From Candidatus Nanosynbacter sp. BB002 (GTDB lineage Bacteria > Patescibacteriota > Saccharimonadia > Saccharimonadales > Saccharimonadaceae): a stretch of DNA of 32,000 bases. Within the stretch, counting starts at the first letter, position 1, and each line of letters starts with the position of its first letter. The stretch lies in assembly GCF_037013405.1 (NCBI RefSeq), contig NZ_CP146064.1, positions 300,001 through 332,000 on the forward strand. Direction: 5' to 3'. Shown in pieces: positions 4,175 through 31,990 of the stretch. Both the position numbers and the translations under genes were made by a program. The notes under the pieces were generated by a model. The model was not told where the DNA came from. It did not search any database and was given only the letters and a program-made list of their open reading frames with translations.

Positions 4175-4194
4175 GACTTTTATTGCAAAAAGTA

Positions 4195-4223
4195 TTGACA
4201 CTATGTCAAATCTTTGCTATAAT
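4195..4223 (+). promoter_or_regulatory. Perfect sigma70-type consensus promoter TTGACA-N17-TATAAT facing the ORF-free region
   Basis: ttgaca at 4195-4200, a 17-nt spacer, and tataat at 4218-4223. The predicted transcription start is about 4229-4231. Confidence 0.6.
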
Positions 4224-4229
4224 GATACA

Positions 4230-4976: not shown

Positions 4977-4982
4977 ATTGTT

Positions 4983-5018
4983 GCAATTATATCACTTATT
5001 GCGACAAATTTGCAATAA
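4983..5018. promoter_or_regulatory. Candidate Fur/Zur operator overlapping both divergent -10 boxes
   Basis: Three half-sites GCAAT (4983-4987), ATTGC (4998-5002) and GCAAT (5012-5016) form two inverted repeats, including TTATTGC-N9-GCAATAA (4996-5018). The outer sites overlap the fur-side -10 (4986-4991) and the plus-strand TGcAATAAT (5011-5019). Confidence 0.35.
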
Positions 5019-5046
5019 TTTGGAGGGTTTGGCATTATGAAAAGCT

Positions 5047-5814: not shown

Positions 5815-5816
5815 TT

Positions 5817-7258: not shown

Positions 7259-7317
7259 CTTATAACCTGCCAACTAAGTACAGATGATTCTATGTAGATA
7301 TGCTATACTAAAGCAAT

Positions 7318-8391
7318 ATGAAACATCTCTGGCGTTCACATCATCCATTTCGAATTTTTTGGTTTTCAACACTGTTGACGCTGATTTTGGGCAGCTTGAC
7401 GTTCATACACTTGGGTCTTGGTGGCCTCTGGCTATTTGCTATTTTGGTGGTGTTGGAAGTGACGTTTAGCTTTGACAACGCGGTGATTAACAGCAAAGTA
7501 TTGGCTGGTATGAGCTCGACGTGGCAAAAAGTATTTTTGACGGTTGGGATTTTTGTGGCGGTGTTTGTAGTGCGGTTTATTTTGCCAATTTTCATCGTTA
7601 TGGTGGCGAGTGGTCATGGTTTTACTGAGGTGGTCGACCTGGCTATTAATAAGCCGACTGAGTATGGTCACATCTTGCACGAGGCGTCACCAATGATTGA
7701 CGCGTTTGGTGGTGCGTTCTTGATCATGATCGGCCTGAGCTATTTCATCGATTATAACAAGCGTATCCACTGGGTCAGTCATGTTGAGCCGTGGCTGGCC
7801 AAGGCTGGGCGATTTGAAAACTTCAAAGTTTGTTTGATGTTGGCGGTGGCGACTATTTTGTATTTCACGGTGGAGCCAGCACATCAGTCGCTGATTTTGA
7901 TCTCATCTATCCTGGGGATTATGCTGCACATCGGGCTGGAATTGTTTGGATCCTTTTTCCACGAGGAAGATGCTCAATCTATCAAAATCAAGACTGGCTG
8001 GGCGGCATTTGCAAGTTTGTTGTACCTTGAAGTGTTGGACGCTAGCTTTAGTTTTGACGGTGTCATCGGTGCGTTTGCTATCACCAGTAGTGTCCTGTTG
8101 ATTGTGGCTGGGCTGGCGGCTGGCGCTGTTTGGGTACGGTCGCTGACAGTGTATCTGTTGCGCACGGGCGTACTCAGTAAATATAAGTATTTGGAAAATG
8201 GTGCACACTGGGCGATTACGGCGCTTGGTATGATGATGATTGCGAAGCTGTTTCATCTGGAGTTACCAGAATGGGCGACAGGCGGCCTGGGGTTGTTGTT
8301 TGTGAGCTTGGCGGTCGGCAGTAGTGTTTTGGAGGCACGATCTATCAGGCTGCGAGAAGCAGCAGCAAAAATCAAACGCCGAAAACGATAA
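7318..8391 (+). CDS. TerC/DUF475-family integral membrane protein
   Basis: Polytopic 357-aa ORF with a duplicated signature: LEVTFSFDNAVINS in the first half and LEVLDASFSFDGVIGA in the second. TGcTATACT (7301-7309) lies 8 nt upstream of the ATG. Confidence 0.75.
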   Translation: MKHLWRSHHPFRIFWFSTLLTLILGSLTFIHLGLGGLWLFAILVVLEVTFSFDNAVINSKVLAGMSSTWQKVFLTVGIFVAVFVVRFILPIFIVMVASGHGFTEVVDLAINKPTEYGHILHEASPMIDAFGGAFLIMIGLSYFIDYNKRIHWVSHVEPWLAKAGRFENFKVCLMLAVATILYFTVEPAHQSLILISSILGIMLHIGLELFGSFFHEEDAQSIKIKTGWAAFASLLYLEVLDASFSFDGVIGAFAITSSVLLIVAGLAAGAVWVRSLTVYLLRTGVLSKYKYLENGAHWAITALGMMMIAKLFHLELPEWATGGLGLLFVSLAVGSSVLEARSIRLREAAAKIKRRKR

Positions 8392-8396
8392 GCGTT

Positions 8397-8413
8397 TTGC
8401 AACGTTGTTGCAA
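8397..8413. terminator. Short hairpin in the 22-nt gap between convergent genes
   Basis: ttgcaac-gtt-gttgcaa, a 7-bp perfect stem with a 3-nt loop. It is AT-rich and weak. Confidence 0.3.
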
Positions 8414-8974
8414 TTAGAGTCTGACGCTTAGAGGCTCAATGCTACCATCAAGAAATGCGCTAACTAGCTTGATTGACTCAGGGATCGTCCAATCGCGGAG
8501 AATTGTTCGTTCGTCGGCGTTGAATTTACTGAGGACAAAGTCGACATCACCGATTTGCCGGCGTAGCAAGTTGTCGGTGCCGATGCGGATGTGCCAAAAC
8601 TCACTGCCAACGTGTCGATGCAGTGATTTCAAACCGTTATTGCCAGCACTTTCGCCCCCCTTGCGGACGCGAATTTTACCAAAGTCAAGCGCTGTATCGT
8701 CGTGAATAATCAGTAAATCATCAAGCGTCAGCTTATAAAAATCCATGAGCGCTCGCGCTGCGATGCCAACTTCGTTGTAGTATGTTGTCGGTTTGACGAG
8801 TAGAATCTTCTCTCCAGATATGTTCAATTCGGTAATATCAGCCGAGAATTTTGGCTTATTGCTAAATTGTGCACTTTGCTCCGCCGCTAACTGGTCGACC
8901 ACCAAAAAGCCAGCGTTATGCCGCGTGTACGTGTATTTGTCGCCAGGATTACCGAGGGCTAGAATGACTTTCAT
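8414..8974 (-). CDS. pth: Peptidyl-tRNA hydrolase
   Basis: MKVILALGNPGDKYTYTRHNAGFLVVD and the overall 186-aa length are classic Pth. TGaTATACT (8981-8989) lies 6 nt upstream of the ATG. Confidence 0.95.
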   Translation of the reverse strand: MKVILALGNPGDKYTYTRHNAGFLVVDQLAAEQSAQFSNKPKFSADITELNISGEKILLVKPTTYYNEVGIAARALMDFYKLTLDDLLIIHDDTALDFGKIRVRKGGESAGNNGLKSLHRHVGSEFWHIRIGTDNLLRRQIGDVDFVLSKFNADERTILRDWTIPESIKLVSAFLDGSIEPLSVRL

Positions 8975-9018
8975 GTCTTCAGTATATCACCTCGGACGTG
9001 ATGGCGTATAATAGCTAT

Positions 9019-9990
9019 ATGGCAAAGCGCGATGATGATTTGGAATTTAGTATCAATGCAGCGTTTGATGAGACGCGGACGATTGTTGATAAAGTACCGC
9101 TGTATCTGGTGAATGGCTCGCTGGGCGTTGGTAAGACGAGCGTGCTGGAATTCTTATTGCAACAACGTGACTTTACGGGCGCGCGAGTGATTGAAAATGA
9201 ATATGCCAACGAAAATGTCGATGGCTACCGGTTGGAGGGCTTGGCAGACATGGTGACGACCTTGGCTGGCGACTGTGTTTGCTGTGGCTCGGAGGATGCA
9301 CTGACCAAGATGCTGATGGATTTTAGTTGCTATTCCCCTGCACCAGTGTTCATCGAGGCGACGGGCGTGGCACGGACGATGAATTTGGTGGAGCGATTGA
9401 TCAGCGCTAAGATGTTTGCTAAGTACGAGCTGATGCAGAGTTTTTACGTGATCGATGCGCATGAGATTTTACGCGGTGTCGAGCCGGCGCATGAAATTGA
9501 GCTACAAGCGGCAGATGTGATTTTGGTGACCAAGGAAGATCTATTGAAGGATAATGAACGAGCTGAATACGAGGCCAAGCGCCGCGCCCTGCCCTATGCC
9601 AAGGTGCTGAGCGCCCCACACGGCCAGTTTGACCTCAGTAAAATCACCACGCCGTCGGGGCTGCTGGCATTTTTCGACCAGTATGATGGCGAGCTCGCGG
9701 TGCCGGACAATCCAACCTATAGCGTGGTTGATTTATCGGCCGTCACTGTCAGTGAAGCGGTGTTTGAAAAGCTGTGGCCAGAGCTGTTTGCGGCATATGG
9801 TCTCAGGCGGCTGAAAGGTTGTTTTATAAACGACCGTGGTGAGAGGCGGCACATTGAGGCGACGCAGTATCAAATTGAGATTCGTCATGCACGCTCAGAT
9901 GAGGCAGTAAAAATTGTGCTGATCGGTGAGCGAGCAGATGAAATTACACGCGATATTTTGCAAGCGCACATTCTCATGTATGGTGGATGA
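9019..9990 (+). CDS. COG0523/CobW-family G3E GTPase, copy 2 (paralog of 5817-6716)
   Basis: GSLGVGKTS P-loop, GDCVCCGS CxCC, EATG, TKED and a CobW_C-like end. A 23-nt stretch (9178-9200) differs at one base from 5913-5935. The start is set at ATG 9019 because TATAAT (9007-9012) lies 6 nt upstream; the longest ORF starts at 8998. Confidence 0.8.
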   Translation: MAKRDDDLEFSINAAFDETRTIVDKVPLYLVNGSLGVGKTSVLEFLLQQRDFTGARVIENEYANENVDGYRLEGLADMVTTLAGDCVCCGSEDALTKMLMDFSCYSPAPVFIEATGVARTMNLVERLISAKMFAKYELMQSFYVIDAHEILRGVEPAHEIELQAADVILVTKEDLLKDNERAEYEAKRRALPYAKVLSAPHGQFDLSKITTPSGLLAFFDQYDGELAVPDNPTYSVVDLSAVTVSEAVFEKLWPELFAAYGLRRLKGCFINDRGERRHIEATQYQIEIRHARSDEAVKIVLIGERADEITRDILQAHILMYGG

Positions 9991-10644
9991 TTAGCTTTTT
10001 CCTGCGGTGTCTGGGCTATCGACAGTGATGGTTTGGTATGATTTACCTTTTTTTGTTTTATCTATCTCAGCAGGCTTCACAGTAAGAGTAAAACCTTCCT
10101 GTAGTTCGGAAAATGGTCCAAGTAATCCGTAGGCTGCAACCTCTCCAACTGCTCGCATGAAGTTCTCGGCAGCTTGTTCTCGTTCAGCTAGTTCTGCTGG
10201 ACTTTCACCTGCTACTCCTGGTATCTCAACACCAGTAATAACTTCACTAAAGTTGGGGTACTCGGCGTCACCTGGCTCTGCTGTCACAGACATGCTTGCA
10301 CTTGTGCAACCAGTAGCTTTGGGCATGTCAAAGATGGATGATTTTTTACCAGCACGGTCAAGTAGTGGTTGGTGGTTACCAGTGTCTCCAGCAATGAGAG
10401 TAACTCCTACTATAGTCTCCTCACTCGTTGTGTTTTCGTCATATTGCGGTAGTACTTGGATATCATCGACTGAGCCGATACGCATGGAATATTCGTCTGC
10501 CTTTTTGCTAAAAAAAGATTTAACGGTGACCTCAAAGATAGTATGCTTAGGGTCTATGGTATCAATAGGTGGCGTTTGATCGGGGCGTACAATGGTATGA
10601 GAGGTTGCCTGTTCAGAGTGTGTAGAGTTTGTCAAGTTTTCCAT
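9991..10644 (-). CDS. Hypothetical acidic protein with no recognisable domain or signal peptide
   Basis: ORF with TGgTATAAT (10654-10662) 9 nt upstream of ATG 10644 (MENLTNSTH...). The longer ORF to 10710 would start upstream of its own -10 box. G+C is lower than in the neighbours. Confidence 0.55.
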   Translation of the reverse strand: MENLTNSTHSEQATSHTIVRPDQTPPIDTIDPKHTIFEVTVKSFFSKKADEYSMRIGSVDDIQVLPQYDENTTSEETIVGVTLIAGDTGNHQPLLDRAGKKSSIFDMPKATGCTSASMSVTAEPGDAEYPNFSEVITGVEIPGVAGESPAELAEREQAAENFMRAVGEVAAYGLLGPFSELQEGFTLTVKPAEIDKTKKGKSYQTITVDSPDTAGKS

Positions 10645-10747
10645 ATATGTTGTATTATACCACAACAGCTCATATTTGTAAATAGTGTATTGATCATGAA
10701 AATAGCCCACCCAAAGAGGCTTAAGCCGAGGTGTGAATTATCAAAGG

Positions 10748-12181
10748 CTATATGCCCTTTTCGGCGTTTTTGGCTTGTTTGTAGGCTTTGGTGACGGGCG
10801 CCAGGCCGCGGGCGACGCGTTCGCGGTTGGCTTTGAGCTGCTTTTCGTCGCGGAAGGATAGTTTAATGGGCGTGCCGGCAAAGTTGAAGGCTTCACGCAG
10901 GGTGCGCTCCAAGTAGCGTTTATAGCTCCAGTGGACGAATTTGAGGTTGCTGCCGTAGATGACGAACCATGGCGGGGCCGTATCGGTCTGGACGATGTAG
11001 CGGAGTTTTGGATGCGAGTTCTTTAGGCCGGCTGGTGGATGAGCGGCGACGGCTTTTTGCAAGAGGTCGTTGAGGATGCGGGTTTTACACTCTTGGTGGC
11101 GGCGCTTGTAAATGTCGAGGGCTAGGTCGAACAATTTGGCGACGTTTTGGCCAGTGACTGATGAGGTGAAGATCAGTGGCGCGTAGGGTGTGAATTTAAA
11201 ATGATAACTAATTTGCGGTGCTAGCTCGTCGTGGGTGTAGGCGTCTTTGCCTTCGACGGAGTCCCATTTGCTGACGACTAGGACGAGCCCCTTGCCTGCT
11301 TCATCGATGATGCCCGCCAGTCGTTGGTCTAGCCCAACGTTTAATTCATTGACGTCCATCAGCAGAAAACAGATGTCGGCTTCGTTGATGGCTTGCATGG
11401 TGCGCAGGACCGAGAACTTTTCGATGCCGGTCTCTTGCTTGCCTTGGCGGCGAATGCCGGCGGTGTCGAGTAGCTCGATGGTCTGGCCATGGTAGCGGAC
11501 TTGGACACGGTTGACGTCGCGGGTGGTGCCGGCGACATTGGCGACGATGGCTTGCTGCTTGCCTGCTAGGGTGTTGAACAGGTTGCTTTTGCCGACATTT
11601 GGCCGGCCGATGAGGGCGACGCGAATGATGTCGTCAGCTTCGGTTTGAGTGGCTGGCGGGATGAGATCGGCAATGTCGTCGAGCAGCTCGGAGATGCCGA
11701 TGTTGTGCTCGGCAGAGGTTTTGATGATGGTTTTGATGCCGAGACGCTTGAATTCGTCGGTGTGGAGCGAGCCTTTGAGGTCGGCTTTGTTGGCGATGAG
11801 GAGGACGGGCTTGCCACTTTTGAGGGCTTTTTTAGCCAGTTGGCGATCGGCATCTGATGGATAGACGGTGGAATCGACCACGACGAGGATGACGTCGGCC
11901 GCGGCAGAGGCATCAGCGATTTGGTCTTGGATGGTGGCTTCGAATTCGTCTTCGGCGGGCTTGAGGCCGGCGGTGTCGATGAGCCAGAACTCAGCCTGGC
12001 TTGCCTCGTCAGGAGATGAGGCGCGGCGCTTATACGAAACTTTGCCAACAACGTTGTCGCGGGTGGTGCCGGCTTCGCGGGCGACGATGGCGGTGCGGGC
12101 GCGCGTCAAGCGATTGAACAATGAACTTTTGCCAACGTTAGCTTGGCCGATGATGGCGACGGTGGGTAATTTATGAGACAT
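10748..12181 (-). CDS. der: Ribosome-assembly GTPase Der/EngA
   Basis: Two tandem G domains (GQANVGKSSLFN and GRPNVGKSNLFN, each with DTAG and NKxD/SKWD motifs) plus a KH-like C-terminus. TGgTATAAT (12192-12200) lies 10 nt upstream of the ATG. Confidence 0.95.
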   Translation of the reverse strand: MSHKLPTVAIIGQANVGKSSLFNRLTRARTAIVAREAGTTRDNVVGKVSYKRRASSPDEASQAEFWLIDTAGLKPAEDEFEATIQDQIADASAAADVILVVVDSTVYPSDADRQLAKKALKSGKPVLLIANKADLKGSLHTDEFKRLGIKTIIKTSAEHNIGISELLDDIADLIPPATQTEADDIIRVALIGRPNVGKSNLFNTLAGKQQAIVANVAGTTRDVNRVQVRYHGQTIELLDTAGIRRQGKQETGIEKFSVLRTMQAINEADICFLLMDVNELNVGLDQRLAGIIDEAGKGLVLVVSKWDSVEGKDAYTHDELAPQISYHFKFTPYAPLIFTSSVTGQNVAKLFDLALDIYKRRHQECKTRILNDLLQKAVAAHPPAGLKNSHPKLRYIVQTDTAPPWFVIYGSNLKFVHWSYKRYLERTLREAFNFAGTPIKLSFRDEKQLKANRERVARGLAPVTKAYKQAKNAEKGI

Positions 12182-14534: not shown

Positions 14535-16514
14535 TTATGAATTATTGGTTCTCCGCGGTATGCTGATGGCGCGGCGGCTGGTCTCTAAATGATGTTCGAT
14601 GTCGGCAAGCGTGGCGTGTTCTGGGCTGGTTGGTGTTGGCTGCGGCTGTGGTGGTTGGTTGGGCTGGACAGACGGCTCAGTGACTAGGGCAGGTTCGGTT
14701 AGCTGCTGAGGCTGTTCTATTGGTTGCTGAGGCTGAGGCGTCACTGGCGGCTCAGCGGGTGTGACGACAGAAGCTACTGGAGTTTGCGGTTGATGGTACT
14801 GAACTGGTACTGGCTGCAAGGATGCTTCTTTGTGAGCGGCTTCTTCTTTGGAGATTCGCGGTATTTCCAAAAAGAAAGTGCTTCCCTTGCCATACTCGCT
14901 CTCGACACGTAAATCGCCCGACATGCTTTCGGCGAGTCGGCGAGACAGATACAATCCCAAGCCAGTACCACCGATTTCGCGAGTGGCTGAATTGTCAACC
15001 CGATAAAACTTTTGGAAAAGATGCGGCACGTCTTCTGCGGGGATGCCTAGGCCAGAGTCCATCACACTGACAACCACCTTTGACGAGTCGCCAGTGACGT
15101 CAACCACCACCTCGCCTTCTTTGGTGTATTTGATGGCGTTTTCTATGAGGTTGGCGGTAATTTCCCGGAAATGGTCGGGGTCGACAAAGGCGTAATAAAT
15201 GGGCTGCAAATGCTGATCAGCGGAGTCTTTGGCTAGTGCGTGCGGCCGAAACGAATAGAGCAGATTTTTCTCGGCGGCTTTGTGCGCCAGACCTTCAAAG
15301 ATGTCTGCCACAAAATCAGTTACGTTAAATAGCTTTGGCTCATCTTTGAGGCGCCCGTCCTCGGCTCTACTGATATCCAGCAAGTCTTGAAATAACCGGC
15401 CCAGGTGTTGAGCGGAGGCATGCGCTTTGGTGATGAAGTCGCGTGCTTTGTCGTCAATTTGGGCAGTGGCTGGGTTGAGCGCTAGGCCCAGATACCCCTC
15501 GATGGAAGCCACGGGCGTGCGCATTTCGTGGCTGGCAGTGGAGATAAACTCGGCCTGCTCTCGCTCTTCGGCGCGTTCTTTGGAAATGTCGCGGAACACG
15601 ATGATGACACCTTCCTTTTGTGGGCCTATGGGAGAACTAACGATGGTGATCGGTAGTCGTTTGTCTGAAGAGGTTTTGAGAAATAGGTTATCGCTGTGGG
15701 TGGGCTGGTTTGAAGACAATGCTTGAGCAACGGGATGTTTGCCCTCTGGGATGTCAGATCCGTCCTTGAGCACTAGTTTGAGGACGCTCTGCCAACTCAA
15801 CCCCAAAGCGTCGCCTTTGTCCCAGCCAATCATCTGTTGCGCAGCTGGATTGATGAGCTCAATGATACCGTCATTGGAAATAGCCATCACGCCGTCGTCA
15901 ATGGTATTGATGACAACATCAGATTTACCCTCGGCGGAGGTTAGCCTATTTTCCAGTTCAGTAAATCGATCGTCGAGTTTTTTCTGTGGTTGGTATCGCC
16001 ATAGAACAATGCTCAGGACGAGTGGCATGATGCCAAGCACTGCGCTGATGGTTATCTGTTCTAGTGTCAGTGGTGTTTCGAAATGAATCATGGCGATGTG
16101 CGCCACGACTAACAAGATGATGCCACCAGTCAGCCACAGCCCAAATACTGCAGCAAAGATAGTCACCATGAGCCAGAGGCTGGTAAATGGAGAATAGATG
16201 CCGCCGCTGGTGGCGATGAGTGCGGCGATGGTGATGATGAGCGACGCATAGGTGGCGCATGCCAGGTAGGCGCGTTGTTTTTTGGGCGTCCAAACACAGA
16301 GACCAAGCGCCCAAACTGCGGACAATACGCTGATAGCGGCGGCCAAGTCAGTCACTGAATCGCCAATAGTAAAGCGATAATTGCCAGGCAAAAAACGAGC
16401 TGATGCGTATGTGAGGAGAATGAAGAGATTGACTAGTAGCGAGGCTTTACTGAGACGGCGCAGCCAAAATTTGGAAAATGTTCTGTCAGACTGCCCCACC
16501 CTCGATTCTTTCAT
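14535..16514 (-). CDS. Membrane sensor histidine kinase (multi-TM, PAS, HisKA, HATPase) with a Pro/Gln-rich C-terminal tail
   Basis: About six N-terminal hydrophobic helices, a PAS-like segment (DDGVMAISNDGIIELINPAAQQMIGW), H-box STASHEMRTPVASIEGY, and N/G boxes (NLIENAIKYT, DSGLGIP, GTGLGL). The tail is QPVPVQYHQPQTP...PPQPQPTPTSP. TATACT (16522-16527) lies 7 nt upstream of the ATG. Confidence 0.9.
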   Translation of the reverse strand: MKESRVGQSDRTFSKFWLRRLSKASLLVNLFILLTYASARFLPGNYRFTIGDSVTDLAAAISVLSAVWALGLCVWTPKKQRAYLACATYASLIITIAALIATSGGIYSPFTSLWLMVTIFAAVFGLWLTGGIILLVVAHIAMIHFETPLTLEQITISAVLGIMPLVLSIVLWRYQPQKKLDDRFTELENRLTSAEGKSDVVINTIDDGVMAISNDGIIELINPAAQQMIGWDKGDALGLSWQSVLKLVLKDGSDIPEGKHPVAQALSSNQPTHSDNLFLKTSSDKRLPITIVSSPIGPQKEGVIIVFRDISKERAEEREQAEFISTASHEMRTPVASIEGYLGLALNPATAQIDDKARDFITKAHASAQHLGRLFQDLLDISRAEDGRLKDEPKLFNVTDFVADIFEGLAHKAAEKNLLYSFRPHALAKDSADQHLQPIYYAFVDPDHFREITANLIENAIKYTKEGEVVVDVTGDSSKVVVSVMDSGLGIPAEDVPHLFQKFYRVDNSATREIGGTGLGLYLSRRLAESMSGDLRVESEYGKGSTFFLEIPRISKEEAAHKEASLQPVPVQYHQPQTPVASVVTPAEPPVTPQPQQPIEQPQQLTEPALVTEPSVQPNQPPQPQPTPTSPEHATLADIEHHLETSRRAISIPRRTNNS

Positions 16515-16580
16515 GATATTAAGTATAGCGTCAAACTGTGGTAAAACGCAAGCGCGTCTCTGTTGGCTGGCGCGGCGGTA

Positions 16581-16610
16581 TAGACAAAAGCGGCTGCGTC
16601 ATGGTATGAT
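16581..16610 (+). promoter_or_regulatory. Promoter of tRNA-Glu (TAGACA-N18-TGgTATGAT)
   Basis: tagaca at 16581-16586 and tatgat at 16605-16610, preceded by tgg. The -10 box ends 10 nt before the mature tRNA 5' end. Confidence 0.5.
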
Positions 16611-16620
16611 GCTTAGTGTT

Positions 16621-16695
16621 GGCCTCATCGTCTAGCGGTTAGGACACCGGGTTCTCATCCCGGCAACCGGGGTTCGATTCCCCGTGAGGTCACCA
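16621..16695 (+). tRNA. tRNA-Glu (anticodon CUC), CCA encoded
   Basis: Hand-folded cloverleaf: acceptor ggcctca/tgaggtc, D stem gtct/ggac, anticodon stem ccggg/cccgg with loop ttCTCat, T stem cgggg/ccccg with loop ttcgatt, discriminator A, then CCA. Confidence 0.9.
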
Positions 16696-16711
16696 TAGAG
16701 AAATTATCAGC

Positions 16712-16737
16712 ACTGCCCTCTTGGGCAGTTCTTTTTT
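16712..16737 (+). terminator. Intrinsic terminator after tRNA-Glu
   Basis: Stem actgccc (16712-16718) / gggcagt (16723-16729) with loop tctt, followed by tcttttttag. Confidence 0.7.
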
Positions 16738-16776
16738 AGTATTGTAATGATTTGTTTTGAAAGCCGTGTTCTTGTG

Positions 16777-17154
16777 CTAGTCGCCTAGCTGTTCGATCAC
16801 CTCCAGTAGCTTCCGAGGTGTGATGTCAGCTTTGATGAGGTAGCCGTCGATTCTGGGCAGTAGCTGCGACTTGGATTGGTCGTCTTGCTCAAAATTGGTC
16901 ATGATGAGAATCTTGCTGTTAGGCACTAGATCGGTTTCGCCGTTTCTGAGGGCGTCCAAGATCTGGTCGCCGCGCTGTTCTGGCAACATCAAGTCCAAAA
17001 TGATCAAATCGTACGGCTGATTACGCGCCGCCACCAAACCGTCATTGCCGTCCACCATCCAGGTGACGGTGTAGCCGGCACGCTCCAGGCTGCGCACGTA
17101 CATTTCGCCGATAAATCTGTCGTCTTCGATGCATAAAATTGTTTTGATCGCCAT
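16777..17154 (-). CDS. Single-domain (CheY-like) response regulator
   Basis: 125 aa consisting of a receiver domain only (ILCIEDDRFI ... LIILDLMLPEQRGD ... ILIMTNF ... YLIKA). GGGAG SD; it starts 2 nt after the kinase stop. Confidence 0.9.
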   Translation of the reverse strand: MAIKTILCIEDDRFIGEMYVRSLERAGYTVTWMVDGNDGLVAARNQPYDLIILDLMLPEQRGDQILDALRNGETDLVPNSKILIMTNFEQDDQSKSQLLPRIDGYLIKADITPRKLLEVIEQLGD

Positions 17155-17156
17155 GA

Positions 17157-18683
17157 TTACTCCCTATACATTTTGTGATTTTTTATCCACCCGCCGTCAG
17201 TGCGAATGAGCCGATTGTTTAGCTGGCCGTCTTCTAATAATTTTTCTTTCACCGAGGCGTAGACAGGAATGGTGAAGGAAAAAATTGAACCCTGGTTCTC
17301 CTGGCTGCGTGCGGAGATGCTGCCGCCGTGTGACTCGACAAAGGCTTTACAGATGTATAGGCCGATGCCGGTGCCTGCCACTGTTTCGCGTGATCGGTGT
17401 GAGCGGTAAAATTTGCGAAAGAGGTTTTTGATCACGCCAGCTGGCATACCGACGCCGTTGTCTGAGACGGAAACTTCTACAAATTCGCCTTTTTGCACGG
17501 CAGAAACTTGGACAACTCCGCCTTCGAAGCTGTATTTGATAGCATTGTCGATGAGATTGGAAATCACTTCCCCGATGCTACCACGGTCGGCTGCTACGGT
17601 CGGCAAGTTGCTGGGGATGGATACATTCAACATGCGGTGCTGAGCCGAGGCGCGCAGTTGCATGTCGTCAGCGATGGTAGCGTAAATGGCTTCCAATGTG
17701 TCCTCGCGCAGATGCACGTACAGGTGGTGCCGATCGAACTTTGAAACATTGAGGATGTTATTGATATAGCTGGACAAGCGGTTGGCAGAAACGGTCAGAC
17801 GATTGAACAATTGCGGTTCATCGTCCCGCAGGCGGTCGTGAAGCTCTTGCTCCAAGATGTCCAAGTAGCCGCGAATGACTGTAATGGGTCCACGGAGTTC
17901 GTGCGCTGCAAAGGCGATGAAATTGAGATCCTCTTCTTCGGGTAAGTATTTGGCTGAGCGATCAAAGAGGATGATGACCGTTTCGCCAGCTGCACCTTTT
18001 TCGTAGGAAGCGCTGACGTCATAGAACTTTTGTGGCGCGGAGGTTTTGGATTGAGCTGGTACGCGTGTCCACTGGTGGTGAGCGGTGATGTTGTCTTTGG
18101 CGACTTCTTGGATCCACTCATTGATGGAAATTTCATCAATAAAATCTAGCCCCAACGTTAGCACGCCGTCCATGTTGGAGACCACAGGCGCGGTTTCATT
18201 GGCAAAGATGATGTTTTTTTGGTGGTCCAATACGACGATGCCACACGGCGTGTGATTGAACGACTGAATGATGGCGTCAAGTTGAGACGAAGCTTTTTGG
18301 GCAGTTGGTTTGGCGGGCGCACCGTTGGTATAGATGGCCTCAAGCACGGTTTGGAAACCAGTGCGTGCGTGTGCTGGCGAGTTGATCTTGGCTGGCTTTT
18401 CGGCGGTTAGCTCCCCCGTTTTGTAGGCTGTGGCGTAGAGGACGTCACGCATCGGTTTGCTAATGAATGGTGTGATGGTGATGGCGCCGATGATGCCTCC
18501 GACTGCGCCGAGCAGGATGATGATGTACCAATTAACTTCAACGGCGGCCAGGTTCGTCAATATGAGATGAGTGATGGTCGCAAAAGCAGCAGCGACGCCG
18601 ACAGGCAGCAGCAATAGCAATACCGACCGACGCATGTAATATCGATTGTAGTCGCGAATCGATCGGCGACGGGTTACTGCCAT
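17157..18683 (-). CDS. Sensor histidine kinase (2 TM, PAS-like, HisKA, HATPase)
   Basis: H-box FIAFAAHELRGPITVIRGY, NLIDNAIKYS, DNGVGMP, GTGIGLYICKAFVESHGG. The start is set at ATG 18683 (MAVTRRRS...), which overlaps the upstream gene's stop in ATGGCAGTAA. The longest ORF reaches 18722. Confidence 0.9.
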   Translation of the reverse strand: MAVTRRRSIRDYNRYYMRRSVLLLLLPVGVAAAFATITHLILTNLAAVEVNWYIIILLGAVGGIIGAITITPFISKPMRDVLYATAYKTGELTAEKPAKINSPAHARTGFQTVLEAIYTNGAPAKPTAQKASSQLDAIIQSFNHTPCGIVVLDHQKNIIFANETAPVVSNMDGVLTLGLDFIDEISINEWIQEVAKDNITAHHQWTRVPAQSKTSAPQKFYDVSASYEKGAAGETVIILFDRSAKYLPEEEDLNFIAFAAHELRGPITVIRGYLDILEQELHDRLRDDEPQLFNRLTVSANRLSSYINNILNVSKFDRHHLYVHLREDTLEAIYATIADDMQLRASAQHRMLNVSIPSNLPTVAADRGSIGEVISNLIDNAIKYSFEGGVVQVSAVQKGEFVEVSVSDNGVGMPAGVIKNLFRKFYRSHRSRETVAGTGIGLYICKAFVESHGGSISARSQENQGSIFSFTIPVYASVKEKLLEDGQLNNRLIRTDGGWIKNHKMYRE

Positions 18684-20764: not shown

Positions 20765-22237
20765 TTATTCACTAAGTTTGTAGACATAAAACCGATCGCC
20801 CGCCTCAGCCCAATCATTGGTAATGACGCGCGTGATAGTTCCTGGGATGCCAGTGATATTTTGGCGAGCAGCGCGCGTGACGACTACTTCTTCTTGAGCA
20901 CCCTCTGCTGGCAAGCCATCGCTGATGGATATTGCCCTATTATGCTTATTCATGTGGCTGGACAAGGCGTCGTACAGCGGTTTTTCGGCAGCTGCCACGA
21001 CGAATATATATTTCTTGTTTGCGGTGTCGCGCAGTAGTGTGTCACGCACAAGACTCAAATCTTTGGAATGTTCGCGCACGGCGTCGGGTAGATCGTGGTA
21101 ACTGTGGACGTATCGATTGACACCACTCAGGGTCATGACACCGACCAAGATGATCATCAGTACGAGTCCAGTGCCGCGCGCGTATGGGTTCTTTGGGAAT
21201 AATCGATACCACTCGTACAGCAGTCGTTCTACGCCAGTAGCCAGCAAAATGAACATTGGCACAGAGATGATCATATTGACTTGAGGCGCCAGGGCGAGTA
21301 GCGGCAATGACAAAAATAGCCAAATGTTGACCACGTAGGACCGAGCGGTGTGCCAGTTGCGGAAAGTGATGATCATGCCAAGGAACATCAACGCTACGGT
21401 GCTGACGTCGATAGCTGGCAGCACTTGTCCGTTGGAAATGTACGGCACTGGCCAGAGATAGGTTCGAACGATGATTTTGAGGTTTGCTAATATATCAAAG
21501 TTGAGTGACGACCAGCCTGACACGTCCAGCAAGAAGCCATGATTTTTCAGGCAGAAATACACCAGCGGCGCACTCACTAGCAGAAAGACGATGAATGCTG
21601 GCGTCCAGCTGGCGCGATATTTTCGTGAAACGAGAATGTAGCGTGTGTATGGGTGTAATAACGCTACTAAGATGAGACCAAGGTTGAGGTACCAGAAAAA
21701 TGGCGTGTATAAGCTGGCAGCCATGACGGCGGCGAGGAGGATTTTCCAGAGTTGGGCGAATTTGGCTTTTTGGATGATGAGGCTGGCGAACAGCAAAATC
21801 AATGACGCCGTGGTGATGTAGATGATGCCAGGCGTGAAGCTTTGTGCTAGGTAGATAAATTGACCAGTGGCGATCATGAGAGAAAGAGACAATACCGCAA
21901 TGCCCGGTTTGAACCAGTGCCTGAGGAGGAAAAAGAGTGCCAGCGCCGCTAAACACATCAGTGTGACGGCTGGTAGCTTGATGGTGAGTGTACTGACGCC
22001 AAATAGCAAGAACAGCGCCGCCTGGAATGCGTGTAGTGGCAGATTGACGATGGACCAATTACCTTCCATAAGCAAGTTGGTTCGTGCGACCATGTTGATC
22101 TCTGACTGGCTGATACCGCCTGGCGCGTACAACAACGCCACGCTGATGACCGCGGAAAATATCAATATCAAAGCACTGTAGCCCCAAAGATAGCGCCAAC
22201 GGTAAAGGAACAGATGAGAGAGAGTTTTCTTTTTCAC
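20765..22237 (-). CDS. Polytopic membrane protein, GT-C-like glycosyltransferase candidate (ArnT/PMT-like architecture)
   Basis: 490 aa with about 11-12 hydrophobic helices followed by a soluble ~110-aa C-terminal domain. The family call rests on architecture only. GTG start with TGcTATAAT (22246-22254) 8 nt upstream. Confidence 0.55.
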   Translation of the reverse strand: MKKKTLSHLFLYRWRYLWGYSALILIFSAVISVALLYAPGGISQSEINMVARTNLLMEGNWSIVNLPLHAFQAALFLLFGVSTLTIKLPAVTLMCLAALALFFLLRHWFKPGIAVLSLSLMIATGQFIYLAQSFTPGIIYITTASLILLFASLIIQKAKFAQLWKILLAAVMAASLYTPFFWYLNLGLILVALLHPYTRYILVSRKYRASWTPAFIVFLLVSAPLVYFCLKNHGFLLDVSGWSSLNFDILANLKIIVRTYLWPVPYISNGQVLPAIDVSTVALMFLGMIITFRNWHTARSYVVNIWLFLSLPLLALAPQVNMIISVPMFILLATGVERLLYEWYRLFPKNPYARGTGLVLMIILVGVMTLSGVNRYVHSYHDLPDAVREHSKDLSLVRDTLLRDTANKKYIFVVAAAEKPLYDALSSHMNKHNRAISISDGLPAEGAQEEVVVTRAARQNITGIPGTITRVITNDWAEAGDRFYVYKLSE

Positions 22238-28192: not shown

Positions 28193-28570
28193 TTAGCTGA
28201 GCTCAACGCTAGCGCCAGCGTCTTCCAAAGTCTTCTTTGCAGCTTCAGCTTCGTCTTTTGAAACTTTTTCTTTGACTGGTGCTGGTGCGCCGTCAACGAT
28301 AGCTTTAGCTTCACCCAGACCCAAGCCGGTGATTTCTTTAACAGCCTTGATGACTGCAACTTTCTGAGCACCTGCGTCTTTCAAGGTGACGGTGAACTCA
28401 GTTTTTTCGTCAGCCGCAGCAGCGTCACCGCCAGCAGCTGGACCAGCAACAGCGACAGCTGCAGCAGCTGGCTCGATGCCGTATTCTTCTTTCAAGTGAT
28501 TTTTCAATTCGTTAACTTCCAGAACTGTCAACTTGGTCAGTTCTTCAGCCAATTTCTTAATATCAGCCAT
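28193..28570 (-). CDS. rplL: 50S ribosomal protein L7/L12
   Basis: [23 protein letters not shown], an Ala/Gly hinge, and [34 protein letters not shown]. Confidence 0.97.
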
Positions 28571-28606: not shown

Positions 28607-29131
28607 TTAAGCCGTAGCTTTGGCTTCGATGCCGTCCAAAAGACCATGCAAATTGCCGCCCAGCGCGCCCACGGTGTCGTGGACTGGTGAGAGCAATTGT
28701 GCCACCACTTCGGCGACAAGCTGGTCTTTGCTTGGTAGACCCGCCAATGCTTTGATGTCAGCTTCATTGATGCTGAGGCCTTCACCTGAGAAACCACCAG
28801 CCAACTGCAGTGCTGGATGCGTCTTTGCAAACGTGTCCAAAACTTTCGCTGGCATGACCTCGTCTTCGGCACTGATGGCGTAGACCAATTGGCCAACCAG
28901 GAGGTCGGTATCGGTTTCTTTGTAGGTGTCGACGCCCTCTAGTGCTACGCGCACCAAGCGGTTTTTAACCACCTTGATGACGACGTTTGCCTCGCGAGCA
29001 GCCTTGCGCAGCTCTTGTAGTTCAGCCACGCTCAGACCCTGGTACCGCGCAAATGCCGTACCTTTGGCGTCTTTTAGAAGCTCTGTTAGTTCAGCAACCA
29101 AAGTTTGTTTTTTATCGCGTGAAATTGCCAT
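28607..29131 (-). CDS. rplJ: 50S ribosomal protein L10
   Basis: MAISRDKKQTLVAELTELLKDAKGTAFARYQGLSVAELQELRK is typical L10, and the gene lies immediately upstream of rplL. Confidence 0.95.
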   Translation of the reverse strand: MAISRDKKQTLVAELTELLKDAKGTAFARYQGLSVAELQELRKAAREANVVIKVVKNRLVRVALEGVDTYKETDTDLLVGQLVYAISAEDEVMPAKVLDTFAKTHPALQLAGGFSGEGLSINEADIKALAGLPSKDQLVAEVVAQLLSPVHDTVGALGGNLHGLLDGIEAKATA

Positions 29132-29373
29132 AAAAATCCTTTCTTTGATTGAGTTAATTTCATTCTTTTCGCCAATTTGTTAACGTGCGGTAATGGAGAA
29201 TCAAAAAGACGTCTTTGATTCTCGCACTACCAAAGACGTCAAATAAAACTGTTCGTTTCATCCCTCGGCGGCATGTTTACATCTGTTTGTTATGCAGATC
29301 GCCGCTGTCTTTGGTAATGTTCCTTACCATTGTAGCAGAAATGACAACGAAATGCAACAGGTATATTATATCA
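29132..29373 (-). promoter_or_regulatory. rplJ promoter (TGaTATAAT at 29365-29373) plus a ~225-nt structured leader (L10-leader candidate)
   Basis: A long untranslated leader contains a near-perfect hairpin at 29196-29223, a second copy of caaagacgtc at 29231-29240 and a hairpin ggtaa-ggaaca-ttacc. The position matches the known L10(L12)4 autoregulatory leader. Confidence 0.5.
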
Positions 29374-29409
29374 AACCAAAGAGAAAGCCCGCTCCGTGGT
29401 GGAGCGGGC
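29374..29409 (-). terminator. Intrinsic terminator (second of two) downstream of the adhesin gene
   Basis: Stem gcccgctcc (29387-29395) / ggagcgggc (29401-29409) with loop gtggt, followed on the minus strand by tttctctttggtt. Confidence 0.65.
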
Positions 29410-29444
29410 GGCGAACCTCCCTTCTCTCTGTATCTCATTCTCCT

Positions 29445-29485
29445 CACCGAGGGATGCTAGCCATGATGACTAGCATCCCTCGGTG
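29445..29485 (-). terminator. 16-bp perfect hairpin 5 nt after the adhesin stop codon, with no U-tract
   Basis: caccgagggatgctag (29445-29460) / ctagcatccctcggtg (29470-29485) with a 9-nt loop. Confidence 0.55.
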
Positions 29486-29490
29486 GTATG

Positions 29491-30930
29491 TCACTCCTCG
29501 CGCGAGGAGCGACGCCGCCGGGCTTCGACGAAACCGCCAAAGCCCAGTCCTACGATAACCAGACCTGCTGATAGTTTAATCAGCAGGTCACCGTTGGTGC
29601 CGGTGTGCGCCAGTCCCCCACCTGGCCGCCCGTGCGGCGGCTGGGCGGGGGGCGCGACGACCTCCTGGCCCCTTGTTGGGGTCGGGGAGGCGGCCGGCGC
29701 AGTCGCCGAAGGCGTGGCCTTCGGTGTCGGCGTGACCGTTGCTGACGCGCTGGGCGTCGGCGACGGTTCCGGCGTTGCACTTGGCGACGGTTCCGGAGTC
29801 GGGCTCGGCTCCGGGGTCGGTGTTGTGCTCGGTGATGGCGTCGGCTCCGGTGACGGCGTCACCGACGGAGTCGGGCTCGGGGTCGGCGTCGGAGTTGACT
29901 CCGGTGTCGGCGACGGTGACGGCTCCGGCTTCAGGAGGTAGCTTGCGCCACCTCCTGATTCTGCCCTCCGCACGGTGGCGGAGGCATCCCAGGAGCGATC
30001 CTGGGATGTGATAGTCGCACTGTCTGTCCACGGACCGGGGTCCGTGGGGTCAACGTGGAGATAGAACTCCACGCGTGCCTTCTCACCCTCGTTTAGAGTG
30101 AGTTTCATCGTCAATACAGTGGAGGAGCACTCCATTGTATCGACTGTCGTGCGATGAGTGTATAGGGGTCTACCCCATACACTCGCTTCTCTGTAAGTTC
30201 CTGCTTGCGACAGCACGGTGTTGCTGTCGCAAGAGAAAACTTGGCCCTGAGACGTGAGTTCATCCCTCAGGATGAACTCTTGGGCGTCCGTGGTAGCGGT
30301 CGGGGTTACTAACGTAACCTCGACCAATGAGGGGTCATTCGGGTGAACGACACCCCATTTCGAGGCTCCAGGCCCGGGCTGGCTGCAGCCCGGACACTCC
30401 CCCACGTGGATCTCAGTCCGGCGGGTTTGACCGCCGATCTCCCACAGGAGGTCCCGGGTTTCCCCGGGAACGAGCGTGTCGTCAATGTCGACGCGCCACC
30501 AGCCATACGCCTCGAAGGCGTAATGGTTGGCCACCTCAACGGCATCGGTCAGTGTGATACTGACCTTACCGCCTTTGTAGACGGCGTGAGCGATAATCTC
30601 GCCATTTTCGGTGGCGAGATTGATGGGGGTACCGTAATCCCCCAGTTCCGCCGGTGGTGTGAAGGTGATGCTATCACCTTCACAATGACCCTCCTCGAGG
30701 GCCAAGCCAAACCCGAATTCCACGGACTTGTAGGCCGCGAAATCTTTACCGTCCATGGTGCGGATGTACTCCGCGCTGATTTCCCCCGCCGAGATCGGCC
30801 GGGGAGTGCACGACGACGTTGCTGCCGTCGTGTCGGGGCTCTCGGGGACAGCAGCTGCCACCCCCGAGAACCCGAAGACCATAGCTAGCAGCGCAAACAG
30901 CGCTGCTAGCCCACGTTTCTTCATGGGCAT
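29491..30930 (-). CDS. LAxTG-anchored surface protein, probable Ig-fold (MSCRAMM/Cna-like) adhesin, encoded by a high-GC gene
   Basis: AGGAG sits 8 nt before ATG 30930. Signal peptide MPMKKRGLAALFALLAMVFGFSGVAAA; a ~300-aa beta-rich region (GDSITFTPPAEL...GEIIAHAVYKGGKVSITLTD); a ~95-aa PSPTP-type linker; LAHTG, a hydrophobic segment and RRRR at the C-terminus. The 35 codons upstream of ATG 30930 in the tracked ORF are rejected. Confidence 0.85.
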   Translation of the reverse strand: MPMKKRGLAALFALLAMVFGFSGVAAAVPESPDTTAATSSCTPRPISAGEISAEYIRTMDGKDFAAYKSVEFGFGLALEEGHCEGDSITFTPPAELGDYGTPINLATENGEIIAHAVYKGGKVSITLTDAVEVANHYAFEAYGWWRVDIDDTLVPGETRDLLWEIGGQTRRTEIHVGECPGCSQPGPGASKWGVVHPNDPSLVEVTLVTPTATTDAQEFILRDELTSQGQVFSCDSNTVLSQAGTYREASVWGRPLYTHRTTVDTMECSSTVLTMKLTLNEGEKARVEFYLHVDPTDPGPWTDSATITSQDRSWDASATVRRAESGGGASYLLKPEPSPSPTPESTPTPTPSPTPSVTPSPEPTPSPSTTPTPEPSPTPEPSPSATPEPSPTPSASATVTPTPKATPSATAPAASPTPTRGQEVVAPPAQPPHGRPGGGLAHTGTNGDLLIKLSAGLVIVGLGFGGFVEARRRRSSREE

Positions 30931-31059
30931 GGGAAATCTCCTATGATAGGGAGTTGGAATGGATACAGATGTTAAAGTACATTTCGGTTCGCGTCCAGCT
31001 GGGCTGGAACAGCGAATCAAAAATGACTCTAGCACATCCGTATCCCACTGGGCTTTACT

Positions 31060-31088
31060 ATTCTAGCATAAAATACAGAAAAATGCAA
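31060..31088 (-). promoter_or_regulatory. Promoter of the adhesin gene (TTGCAT-N17-TGcTAGAAT)
   Basis: On the minus strand: ttgcat (31083-31088), a 17-nt spacer, and tagaat (31060-31065) preceded by tgc. This leaves a ~125-nt AT-normal leader. Confidence 0.5.
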
Positions 31089-31120
31089 TACTCCCACGGC
31101 TATCTCGGCGACGTCACCCC

Positions 31121-31151
31121 AGTAAAAATCCCGCCATGATCGGCGGGATTT
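31121..31151 (-). terminator. Intrinsic terminator after rplA
   Basis: Stem aaatcccgcc (31126-31135) / ggcgggattt (31142-31151) with loop atgatc, followed by a T-run on the minus strand. Confidence 0.7.
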
Positions 31152-31180: not shown

Positions 31181-31990
31181 CTAGAGGTTGTTTTCAACTT
31201 TGATACTAGGACCCATGGTAGTAGTCACGGCAACACTTTTGACGTAGGCGCCTTTGAGGCTGCTTGGTTTTTGGGCGTTTAGGCTGCTCAAAAATGCGCG
31301 GGCGTTGTCTTGTAGTTTTTCTGTACCAAACGACACCTTACCGACGCTCAAGTGAACGATGGCTTGTTTGTCGACACGGTACTCCACCTTACCAGCTTTG
31401 GCTTCGGTGACGGCAGTCGCCACGTCTGTTGCTACGGTGCCAGACTTTGGATTTGGCATCAAACCACGTGGACCGAGCAAGCGAGCGTATTTACCAAGTT
31501 TTGGCATGTACTGTGGCGTTGCTACCAAGATGTCAAAGTTCAGCTCTTCTTTGTCCAGCTGCTTCAAGAACTCTTCATCACCAATGATGTCGGCGCCAGC
31601 CTTTTTGGCAGCGGCGTGCTCTTCTTCTGGTGCAAATACTGCGACGCGTACCTCTTTACCGGTACCGTGAGGCAGTGACACGGTTGAGCGAATGTTCTGG
31701 TCTGCCTGGCGTGGGTCAACACCGAGCCGAACGTGCAGCTCCACTGATGCGTCAAATTTGACTGGACTGGTCTCGGTCGCCAGCTTCAAAGCTTCTTCCA
31801 GGGTGTACACTTTGTCTTTCTCGATCTTTTTGGCAGCTTCTTGGTATTTTTTGCCGCGGCGCTCTAGGCGTGGTCGGGTGACTGGCTTTGGACCTTTTTT
31901 GATGTGTGCTTCAGCGTCTTCGTCTTGCGGAGTGGTGTCGCCTGCTTCTTTGCGAGCTTCCTTCTCTGCTTTAGCTTCAGCTTCGTCCAA
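31181..31990 (-). CDS. rplA: 50S ribosomal protein L1 with a charged N-terminal extension (5' end uncertain, may lie outside the window)
   Basis: GKKYQEAAKKIEKDKVYTLEEALKL..., VELHVRLGVDPRQADQNIRSTVSLPHGTGK and LGPRGLMPNPKSGTV are classic L1. There is no in-frame ATG upstream of the conserved core. The only candidate start in the window is TTG 31990, and the frame stays open to nt 32000. Confidence 0.9.
   Translation of the reverse strand: MDEAEAKAEKEARKEAGDTTPQDEDAEAHIKKGPKPVTRPRLERRGKKYQEAAKKIEKDKVYTLEEALKLATETSPVKFDASVELHVRLGVDPRQADQNIRSTVSLPHGTGKEVRVAVFAPEEEHAAAKKAGADIIGDEEFLKQLDKEELNFDILVATPQYMPKLGKYARLLGPRGLMPNPKSGTVATDVATAVTEAKAGKVEYRVDKQAIVHLSVGKVSFGTEKLQDNARAFLSSLNAQKPSSLKGAYVKSVAVTTTMGPSIKVENNL

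Follow-up and report, generated by a model that had tools for sequence, protein, structure and literature searches.

How does a surface protein gene rich in guanine plus cytosine (G+C) come to lie between the ribosomal protein genes rplA and rplJ of a genome-reduced epibiont, and what would it do there? The question is raised by 32,000 nt of Candidatus Nanosynbacter sp. BB002 (NZ_CP146064.1, positions 300,001-332,000), called the window below; all coordinates are window positions. The organism, a subgingival Saccharibacterium from humans, is grown in culture on Actinomyces sp. HMT-171 F0337, and its 804 kb genome, of 47.9% G+C, was short-read sequenced together with that host (PMC11737083). 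The TopA and DnaB encoded in the window match BB002 proteins exactly; the precise adhesin sequence did not turn up in the same protein collection. The rplA-rplJ spacer is about 2.05 kb long, every gene there is on the minus strand, and it carries one open reading frame (29491-30930) of 479 amino acids plus stop, here called the adhesin gene. The original prediction, made from the sequence alone, saw in it a recent single-gene acquisition from a high-G+C actinobacterium by what might be an epibiont of Actinomyces. The life style was guessed correctly, as growth on strain F0337 attests. For the gene itself another explanation now appears likely to us: it would encode a sortase-anchored adhesin of the MSCRAMM class, of old actinobacterial ancestry, that occupies a variable hotspot as an exchangeable cassette and is a candidate for attachment to the Actinomyces host. 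The kind of protein is known; the biology of the hotspot and of its alleles is the new result and the main interest.

The rplA-rplJ spacer as a variable hotspot

Comparison with a relative whose site is empty (locus L046) confirms that the spacer holds a one-gene insert, bounded by the terminator of rplA and by the promoter and leader of rplJ, as had been proposed. In the alignment the insert bounds lie at about 29365-31117, which is exactly from the rplA terminator to the rplJ promoter. The left edge of the variable spacer is the intrinsic terminator of rplA (31121-31151), a 10-bp hairpin with a U-tract recognised from sequence and fold, which aligns with the terminator of L046. The right edge is the rplJ promoter (29329-29357; TTGCAT at 29357-29352, N17, TACAAT at 29334-29329), recognised by its conservation and found 221-256 nt before rplJ in nearly all loci of close relatives, filled or empty. 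Spacer and flanks contain no integrase or transposase, in agreement with the first description, and no clear target-site duplication.

The gene is by no means peculiar to BB002. There are 1399 adhesin homologues, and the best 120 of the 1399 are 47-99% identical, many of them on contigs of 0.2-0.8 Mb. When genomes were scanned with an adhesin profile, all 23 of the species-level loci returned were from Saccharibacteria metagenome-assembled genomes (MAGs) with the homologue at the rplA-rplJ site. A further 18 metagenome contigs carry it at the same site, for a total of more than 40 independent Saccharibacteria assemblies. The order rplA, adhesin, rplJ-rplL is found in every one of the loci L001-L030 that has both flanks on its contig. 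Adhesins at this site diverge down to 46-48% identity. In the BB002-like clade the intergenic junctions are 87-100% conserved, and the RplJ and RplL proteins are 97-100% identical to those of the window.

A sample that is blind to the adhesin gives a different view of the site. RplL was used as the probe to pick 80 metagenome loci, 48 of them with both rplA and rplJ, and the adhesin is present in 18 of these 48. It occurs in all three loci of the BB002-like clade and in one of the 11 from more distant genomes. Two sister clades (RplJ 89-98% and RplA 79-91% identical to the window) contribute the remaining 34 loci. Fourteen of these have the adhesin, eight are empty (333-342 bp) and seven hold only a WhiB-family gene. 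In three others there is a different, Cys-containing secreted protein (two of them also encode a short LAKTG protein rich in Pro and Thr), one locus has a PadR-HAAS-DUF4097 trio and one an unknown gene. Accordingly spacer length runs from 333-342 bp when empty to 2.0-2.7 kb with the adhesin, and reaches 3.4 kb in one locus with extra cargo. Presence and absence are thus polymorphic at a fixed site among close relatives, and the rplA-rplJ spacer is a variable hotspot.

Some of the other cargo deserves description. WhiB genes lie in the spacer of L042, L050, L052, L053, L079, L081 and L089, and also of L057 and L063; two that were tested match Pfam PF02467 with E-values of 2e-23 and 3e-15, and the others were recognised by their pattern of Cys motifs. 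WhiB is usually regarded as a family of actinobacteria and actinophages. We found no paper describing WhiB genes in Saccharibacteria. Alternative surface cargo, also G+C-rich (about 0.60), is found in the spacers of L045, L049, L063 and L069, and is of two kinds: a Cys-containing secreted protein of about 440 amino acids with a GGTDGDG motif and a Pro/Thr linker, and a Pro/Thr-rich, LAKTG-anchored protein of 220-250 amino acids. The 440-residue protein (L045, L063) was considered as a member of the adhesin family and rejected, as it has no detectable homology (hhalign probability 0.4%).

Where the adhesin is present, its alleles are mosaics. Complete BB002-like loci were compared (17, the window and 16 others), with identities taken against the window. 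Nucleotide identity is 94-100% across the flanking genes and the L10 leader. In the region that encodes the two ligand-binding-type domains (N2N3) the alleles form two classes, one with 91-97% identity and the other with 67-71%. For the C-terminal anchor module the values are about 60% or 89-97%, and this module assorts independently of the N2N3 class. As an example, L010 has an N2N3 region at 97% and a C-terminus at 60%, and L013 has the reverse, 68% and 97%. Synonymous divergence (dS) in N2N3 is 0.87-1.05 between classes, compared with 0.17-0.26 for rplA and rplJ in the same genome pairs and less still for rplL; this is 4-5 times the divergence of the flanks. Within a class, dS equals that of the flanks. 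Because between-class dS is so far above that of the flanks, the alleles must be older than their carrier genomes. The ratio of nonsynonymous to synonymous divergence (dN/dS) is 0.18-0.31, and the adhesin is under purifying selection that is relaxed relative to the ribosomal proteins. Taken together, the allele pattern reads as the signature of recombinational import and shuffling, or of long-term balancing selection, and not simply of fast protein evolution.

Fold, anchor and probable role of the adhesin

The protein begins with a predicted signal peptide (30850-30930; residues 1-27, MPMKKRGLAALFALLAMVFGFSGVAAA), read from the sequence and conserved among homologues. Residues 28-334 (29929-30849) make up a ligand-binding-type region of two IgG-like beta-sandwich domains resembling MSCRAMM N2N3, to which Pfam, profile comparison, AlphaFold2 and Foldseek all point. 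The next roughly 105 residues (335-439; 29614-29928) form a stalk rich in Pro, Thr and Ser, encoded by imperfect repeats of 6, 12, 18 and 24 nt. The repeated 14-mers that had been noted here do lie exactly at 29759 and 29783 and at 29795 and 29867, and the guess that the linker varies in length holds for the 117 close homologues scored, in which it measures 55-200 amino acids. The C-terminus (29494-29613) is a cell-wall sorting signal, recognised from sequence and homologue conservation, and its three parts are present and conserved: LAHTG (residues 440-444; 29613-29599), a hydrophobic segment, and RRRR within an RRRRSSREE tail. An LAxTG motif, as first described, is found in all 117 homologues (LAHTG in 77, LAVTG in 28, LAKTG in 11 and LATTG in one).

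The MSCRAMM/Cna-type Ig fold suspected earlier is recovered by several methods. Pfam reports only Big_8, an N2-type bacterial Ig domain, as a weak match (24.1 bits against a cut-off of 22.9). Searched against PDB, a profile of the domain region finds SdrE at an E-value of 3.3e-5 and also Bbp, SdrG and ClfA, and the family motif (K/T)V(S/T)(I/V)TLTDAVE aligns to the staphylococcal YTFTDYVD ('vsvtLTDaVE' against 'ITYTFTDYVD' of SdrE). An AlphaFold2 model of residues 28-334 has two beta-sandwich domains (pLDDT 83.2, pTM 0.69). Foldseek matches it in PDB to Cnm, CNA, SdrE, SdrG, Bbp and ClfA with E-values of 6e-17 to 5e-15 and TM scores of at most 0.69, which are measured against ligand-bound forms. 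Nearly all of the best 50 PDB matches are MSCRAMM A-regions (N2N3; E 6e-17 to 1e-11) or fungal Als adhesins. Going by the model, a two-domain IgG-like fold of the MSCRAMM class is supported.

Two groups of known proteins are close enough for a detailed comparison. The Clf-Sdr MSCRAMMs (SdrG, SdrE, Bbp, ClfA, ClfB) share the whole plan of signal peptide, two tandem IgG-like domains, low-complexity stalk and sortase signal; Big_8 lies on the first domain, TLTDAVE corresponds to YTFTDYVD, and Foldseek TM scores to ligand-bound forms are 0.66-0.69. They differ in sequence (13-15% identity), and the BB002 adhesin has a Pro/Thr stalk instead of Ser-Asp or B repeats, LAxTG rather than LPxTG, no N1 region, and a carrier that is an epibiont of the candidate phyla radiation (CPR). 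After the second domain a Gly-rich segment, ESGGGASY, is conserved (GGGSGDG in actinobacterial homologues), and it presumably sits where the latch sequence of the staphylococcal proteins lies. Over both domains together, the lowest Foldseek E-values (6e-17 to 1e-16) belong to the collagen-binding MSCRAMMs (CNA, Cnm, Ace, RspB), but their TM scores are 0.59-0.63 and the root-mean-square deviation is higher than for the Sdr proteins; there is no match at the sequence level, and the adhesin lacks Cna-B repeats.

Six cysteines, C41, C83, C179, C182, C234 and C268, are invariant throughout the family and, on the strength of this conservation, probably form disulfides. We know of no cysteine in the A-regions of staphylococcal MSCRAMMs. 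Oxidative protein folding has been described for Actinomyces, and its MdbA/VKOR-like components are reported in CPR genomes (PMC6744442), so six invariant cysteines would fit an oxidative folding of the Actinomyces type.

The sorting signal suggests that a sortase would anchor the protein to the wall. No sortase is encoded within the 32-kb window. One was found in L034, a contig that is most likely from a Saccharibacterium, at a distance of 5 kb on the downstream side of the adhesin homologue (16273-17610; 445 amino acids with a long N-terminal extension), and it scores 85 bits against class C and 47 bits against class E, where the cut-offs are 160. The LAxTG motif had been read as the mark of a class E sortase; L034, the one locus where a sortase was found near a homologue, does not confirm this, and the scores suggest a divergent CPR sortase type. 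Kantor et al. report sortases and predicted sorted proteins for a TM7 (Saccharibacteria) genome (PMC3812714), and according to Meheust et al. over half of all CPR genomes have members of a sortase family (PMC6744442). In the literature on Saccharibacteria/TM7 sortases, adhesins, surface proteins and horizontal transfer we found no description of the present gene.

Glycosyltransferase genes were seen in two places. In the window, a PMT_2-type gene lies at 20765-22237 on the minus strand, about 7 kb from the adhesin (weak match, 26.6 bits), and in the actinobacterial locus L035 a PMT gene (9524-11131) directly adjoins the adhesin homologue. Given these positions, O-glycosylation of the Pro/Thr stalk is a possibility.

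From these parts a mode of action can be sketched. After Sec export the two tandem domains (residues 28 to 334, approximately) would form a ligand-binding cleft, and by analogy with SdrG, ClfA and CNA this cleft could clamp a peptide or an extended polymer, by dock-lock-latch or a collagen hug. The stalk would keep the domains clear of the wall, while a sortase would cut the LAHTG signal and link the protein to peptidoglycan. In oral Nanosynbacter the gene is an accessory cassette that carries a putative promoter and terminators of its own, in a hotspot bounded on one side by the terminator of rplKA and on the other by the promoter of rplJL with its L10 leader. Homologous recombination would swap its alleles and modules, with the conserved ribosomal genes as homology arms and natural transformation as the most plausible way in for the DNA. 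The most likely role would be close-range attachment to the surface of the Actinomyces host, and allele diversity would then reflect host-strain specificity or evasion.

The same protein might instead have another target, be it a ligand of human or salivary origin (fibrinogen, collagen, pellicle proteins) or a different oral bacterium, or might serve mainly as a variable antigen. We regard this as possible, though on the unlikely side. The ligands of its structural neighbours are fibrinogen, complement factor H, bone sialoprotein and collagen, and about half of the close relatives do without the gene; initial host binding in the related TM7x has, moreover, been assigned to type IV pili (PMC11623550). 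That same paper, however, proposes further surface adhesins that act at close range and bond directly with the host (PMC11623550). Homologues also exist in Janibacter and Micropruina, which are not host-associated, and the fold therefore need not go with animal ligands.

A more far-reaching version of host attachment can be put forward only tentatively, and we find it rather doubtful: the spacer may be a dedicated exchange site at which strains swap cassettes for surface and host interaction by natural transformation. These cassettes, of actinobacterial ancestry, would include MSCRAMM-like adhesins of deeply diverged allele classes, other LAxTG proteins and WhiB regulators; the near-invariant ribosomal-protein genes would be the homology arms, and the resident adhesin allele would set the Actinomyces/Schaalia host range. 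If this were true, the rplA-rplJ locus would be a host-range switch of a CPR parasite.

Ancestry of the gene

The base composition of the adhesin gene was the starting point for the idea of foreign origin, and on the face of it the gene does stand out. It has the highest overall G+C in the window (0.631 against 0.512 for the window as a whole); 500-nt windows over it give 0.706, 0.588 and 0.572, compared with 0.44-0.59 elsewhere, and the stalk is at 74% and the domain region at 59.6%. The hand counts reported earlier are reproduced (46/60 and 44/60 for two lines of the insert, and 29/60 where about 30/60 had been given for a neighbouring gene). A problem occurs when the protein itself is taken into account. 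Recoding the adhesin with the pooled codon usage of the 30 other genes of the window gives an expected G+C of 0.580, so that some 58% of the excess comes from amino-acid composition; G+C at second codon positions (GC2) is 0.588 against about 0.39. Third positions (GC3) are mostly G or C, as had been stated, at 0.695 observed against 0.548 expected; this excess of 0.147 is about two standard deviations over the window mean. It is equalled in the same window by the gene of the der GTPase (+0.154, GC3 0.704) and by a response-regulator gene (GC3 0.710). Since its synonymous G+C lies within the range of native genes, composition fails as proof of foreign origin; in the window it is suggestive, not diagnostic. 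A similar offset is seen in related genomes: in a clade of 51% G+C the adhesin has a GC3 of 0.65-0.74 where its neighbours average about 0.52, and in one of 46% it has 0.59-0.63 where they have 0.40-0.47, which puts it steadily some 0.17-0.2 over its neighbours (0.40-0.55 overall).

Homologues tell more. An exhaustive hidden Markov model search of 1.84 billion cluster representatives (E up to 1e-3) yielded 136 clusters at 50% identity, and more than 100 of the 136 lie outside the Saccharibacteria clade and have actinobacterial-type composition with LAxTG or LPxTG signals. Nearest outside the syntenic clade are P0122 (52% identity), P0125, P0128 and P0130, on contigs of about 50% G+C where the neighbours are pyrH, smpB, glycosyltransferase, hydrolase and xth genes. 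The hydrolase beside P0125 belongs to a protein cluster that includes a named Saccharibacteria MAG protein, and these contigs are therefore most likely from other Saccharibacteria that hold the family at a second locus. P0122, P0125 and P0130 have LAxTG like the syntenic adhesins, and they differ from them in chromosomal site and in extra Ig-like domains after N2N3; P0128 differs further in its native G+C and in having no recognisable sorting motif.

Next come P0124 and a cluster with two adjacent Janibacter alkaliphilus proteins, the best named actinobacterial relatives at 39% identity over 314 amino acids. These (WP_179462428 and its paralogue) and a Micropruina sp. protein are annotated as 'SDR-like Ig domain-containing' and are true homologues: they share the GHCAGDS, TLTDxVE, CPxC, KWG, TSxGQ and GPWTD motifs and the conserved cysteines, and most members of this LAxTG/LPxTG group have the same plan of domain, linker and sorting signal. 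Unlike the BB002 adhesin they belong to genomes of 68-71% G+C, where they are compositionally native and lie at unrelated loci. No experimental characterisation of these proteins was found. The taxonomy of the distant relatives is given by the two named genera and by the G+C and gene context of four contigs (L035, L036, L118, L119), which have 68-71% G+C and typical actinobacterial neighbours; the homologues there have a GC3 of 0.84-0.94, near that of their neighbours. In L036 (70% G+C) a gene for a tyrosine recombinase of the phage-integrase family (3459-4259) lies about 650 bp downstream of the homologue, which hints that the family may also be mobile within Actinobacteria.

In a neighbour-joining tree (200 bootstraps, midpoint root) the Saccharibacteria sequences, those at the pyrH/smpB-xth locus included, form one clade (200/200), sister to the Janibacter group (198/200) and amid high-G+C sequences. 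The GC3 of the Saccharibacteria homologues ranges from 0.74 down to a native 0.515 in P0128. Such a pattern is in keeping with a single transfer from Actinomycetota long ago and partial amelioration since then, with the direction of transfer read from a midpoint root. The family would then come from high-G+C actinobacterial surface proteins and now be circulating within Saccharibacteria. GC-biased gene conversion, at a locus that recombines, could also account for the raised GC3, either in place of foreign origin or alongside it.

It is also conceivable, though improbable in our judgement, that there was no transfer from Actinobacteria at all, and that the family is old in Saccharibacteria or moved from them to Actinobacteria, with its G+C owed to Pro, Thr, Ala and Gly content and to GC-biased conversion. 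The share of amino-acid composition in the G+C excess is in line with this, as are the clear recombination at the locus, an offset that is roughly constant in the 46% and 51% G+C clades, the two Saccharibacteria lineages with the family at different loci, and a root set at the midpoint only. Most of the diversity of the family, however, is found outside Saccharibacteria in sequences of actinobacterial type, all four of the contigs sampled have high-G+C actinobacterial contexts, the gene is patchy and accessory within Saccharibacteria, and the typically actinobacterial WhiB occupies the same site. An old transfer from Actinomycetota remains our preferred account.

A recent transfer of the single gene from a high-G+C actinobacterium, possibly the Actinomyces/Schaalia host itself, with composition not yet ameliorated, is much harder to maintain. 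It draws on the G+C above that of the neighbours, the LAxTG signal, the actinobacterial character of the wider family and the life of the organism on Actinomyces. The general idea of an actinobacterial source stands in so far as the wider family is at home in actinobacteria of 68-71% G+C, but no close donor is seen: the nearest named actinobacterial relative is only 39% identical, and nothing closer was found outside Saccharibacteria among the cluster representatives searched. GC3, at 0.69, is far under the 0.84-0.94 of the actinobacterial homologues. Orthologues at the same locus with the same composition had been named beforehand as half of what would speak against a foreign gene, and the same site and the same G+C offset are what 23 species-level loci and 18 contigs have, at identities down to 46-48%. 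Recent acquisition by this genome is thus very improbable. Finally, co-sequencing with the host by short reads (PMC11737083) and a G+C-rich insert could raise the suspicion of Actinomyces DNA mis-joined into the epibiont genome, to which we give practically no credence: 63% G+C and a GC3 of 0.69 are not Actinomyces-like, and the same site, with the same promoter, terminators and conserved junctions, recurs in dozens of independent assemblies from different studies, and a chimeric BB002 assembly is therefore excluded.

Several points weigh against the explanation as a whole, that is, an anchored adhesin of old actinobacterial ancestry in host attachment. The synonymous G+C of the gene is no higher than some native genes reach, the tree is a neighbour-joining tree rooted at its midpoint, and only two genera outside Saccharibacteria are named in it. 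Sequence similarity to the solved MSCRAMMs is weak (E about 3e-5, 13-15% identity), and the L034 sortase is beneath the curated cut-offs of every NCBIfam sortase class. About half of the 37 close relatives are without the adhesin. In the passages searched, transposon sequencing of a related Saccharibacterium points to type IV pili and other adhesins and leaves this family unmentioned; the adhesin may therefore be dispensable or bind a non-host target.

Signals of the cassette, neighbouring genes and significance

The cassette appears to bring its own expression signals. Upstream of it in all related loci is rplA, for ribosomal protein L1, whose 3' part lies at 31181-31990 (Pfam Ribosomal_L1, E 7e-62; the start is beyond the window end). 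The promoter put forward in the original prediction is present at 31060-31088 (TTGCAT at 31088-31083, N17, TGcTAGAAT with its -10 hexamer at 31065-31060), and it is kept 95-97 nt past the end of the rplA match in all the BB002-like loci listed, about 20. It is putative, identified by conservation; a consensus scan did not call it, and its -35 hexamer has only three of six matches. Over 34 nt it is 76% identical to the rplJ promoter (26/34; repeat family D3). This pair was considered as an insertion scar and set aside as unproven: unrelated rplJ promoters carry the same TTTTATGCTAxAAT-type consensus, and the likeness may therefore be mere shared consensus.

Between promoter and gene, the 5' untranslated region is predicted to fold into a long hairpin of about 85 nt (30961-31045). 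Over the 136 nt from 30925 to 31060 the folding energy is -47.2 kcal/mol (z = -5.6), and the hairpin is retained in 11 distinct clade sequences with one compensatory pair, hardly any broken pairs and little covariation. A ribosome-binding site, AGGAG (30942-30938), stands 7 nt before the ATG at 30930. The 3' end has two hairpins in tandem (29377-29485), a perfect stem at 29485-29445 and a GC-rich 9-bp stem with a U-rich tail at 29409-29377. The pair folds at -68.9 kcal/mol (z = -8.2), and a terminator scan matches 29409-29387. Both had been described, although the perfect stem is 19 bp long and not 16.

Downstream of the rplJ promoter lies the ribosomal protein L10 leader RNA (29194-29332; Rfam RF00557, 50.1 bits against a gathering score of 44, E 3e-6), followed by rplJ (28607-29131) and rplL (28193-28570), identified through Pfam Ribosomal_L10 and Ribosomal_L12 on the orthologues in loci L001-L006. 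One short match links leader and cassette: 29474-29491, which overlaps the adhesin stop codon and makes up one arm of the 19-bp hairpin, agrees with 29259-29276 of the L10 leader at 16 of 18 positions (D7). A match of this quality is on the border of what chance would give; it may be the trace of a recombination event inside the leader, or an accident. Rfam matches inside the adhesin gene (naRNA4, 29.8 bits; Plant_SRP, 16.9 bits) are far under their gathering scores and were put down to chance, and overlapping open reading frames on both strands of the G+C-rich region were treated as spurious.

Elsewhere in the window, 4557-9990 holds genes for Fur, a nicotianamine-synthase-like protein (PF03059, E 1e-41), two CobW-type GTPases, an unannotated 181-residue protein and a TerC/DUF475 membrane protein, with a peptidyl-tRNA hydrolase gene between the last two. 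From its gene content this cluster looks like one for metal homeostasis.

As to how the ultrasmall Saccharibacteria recognise and hold particular Actinomyces or Schaalia hosts, published work assigns the first contact to type IV pili and the direct bond to unidentified close-range adhesins (PMC11623550). The adhesin described here is a concrete candidate for attachment. It has a wall-anchor signal and an MSCRAMM fold, it is hypervariable and present or absent among close strains, and it belongs to a cultured strain with a known host. Natural competence has been used to manipulate other cultured Saccharibacteria genetically (PMC10633639), so that, provided BB002 takes up DNA as readily, deleting the gene and exchanging its alleles may be feasible. 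Like the WhiB genes that share its site, the adhesin would be a further case of actinobacterial-type genes that persist in Saccharibacteria. Here a genome-reduced epibiont maintains, within a ribosomal gene cluster that is otherwise frozen, one position where gene content stays flexible.

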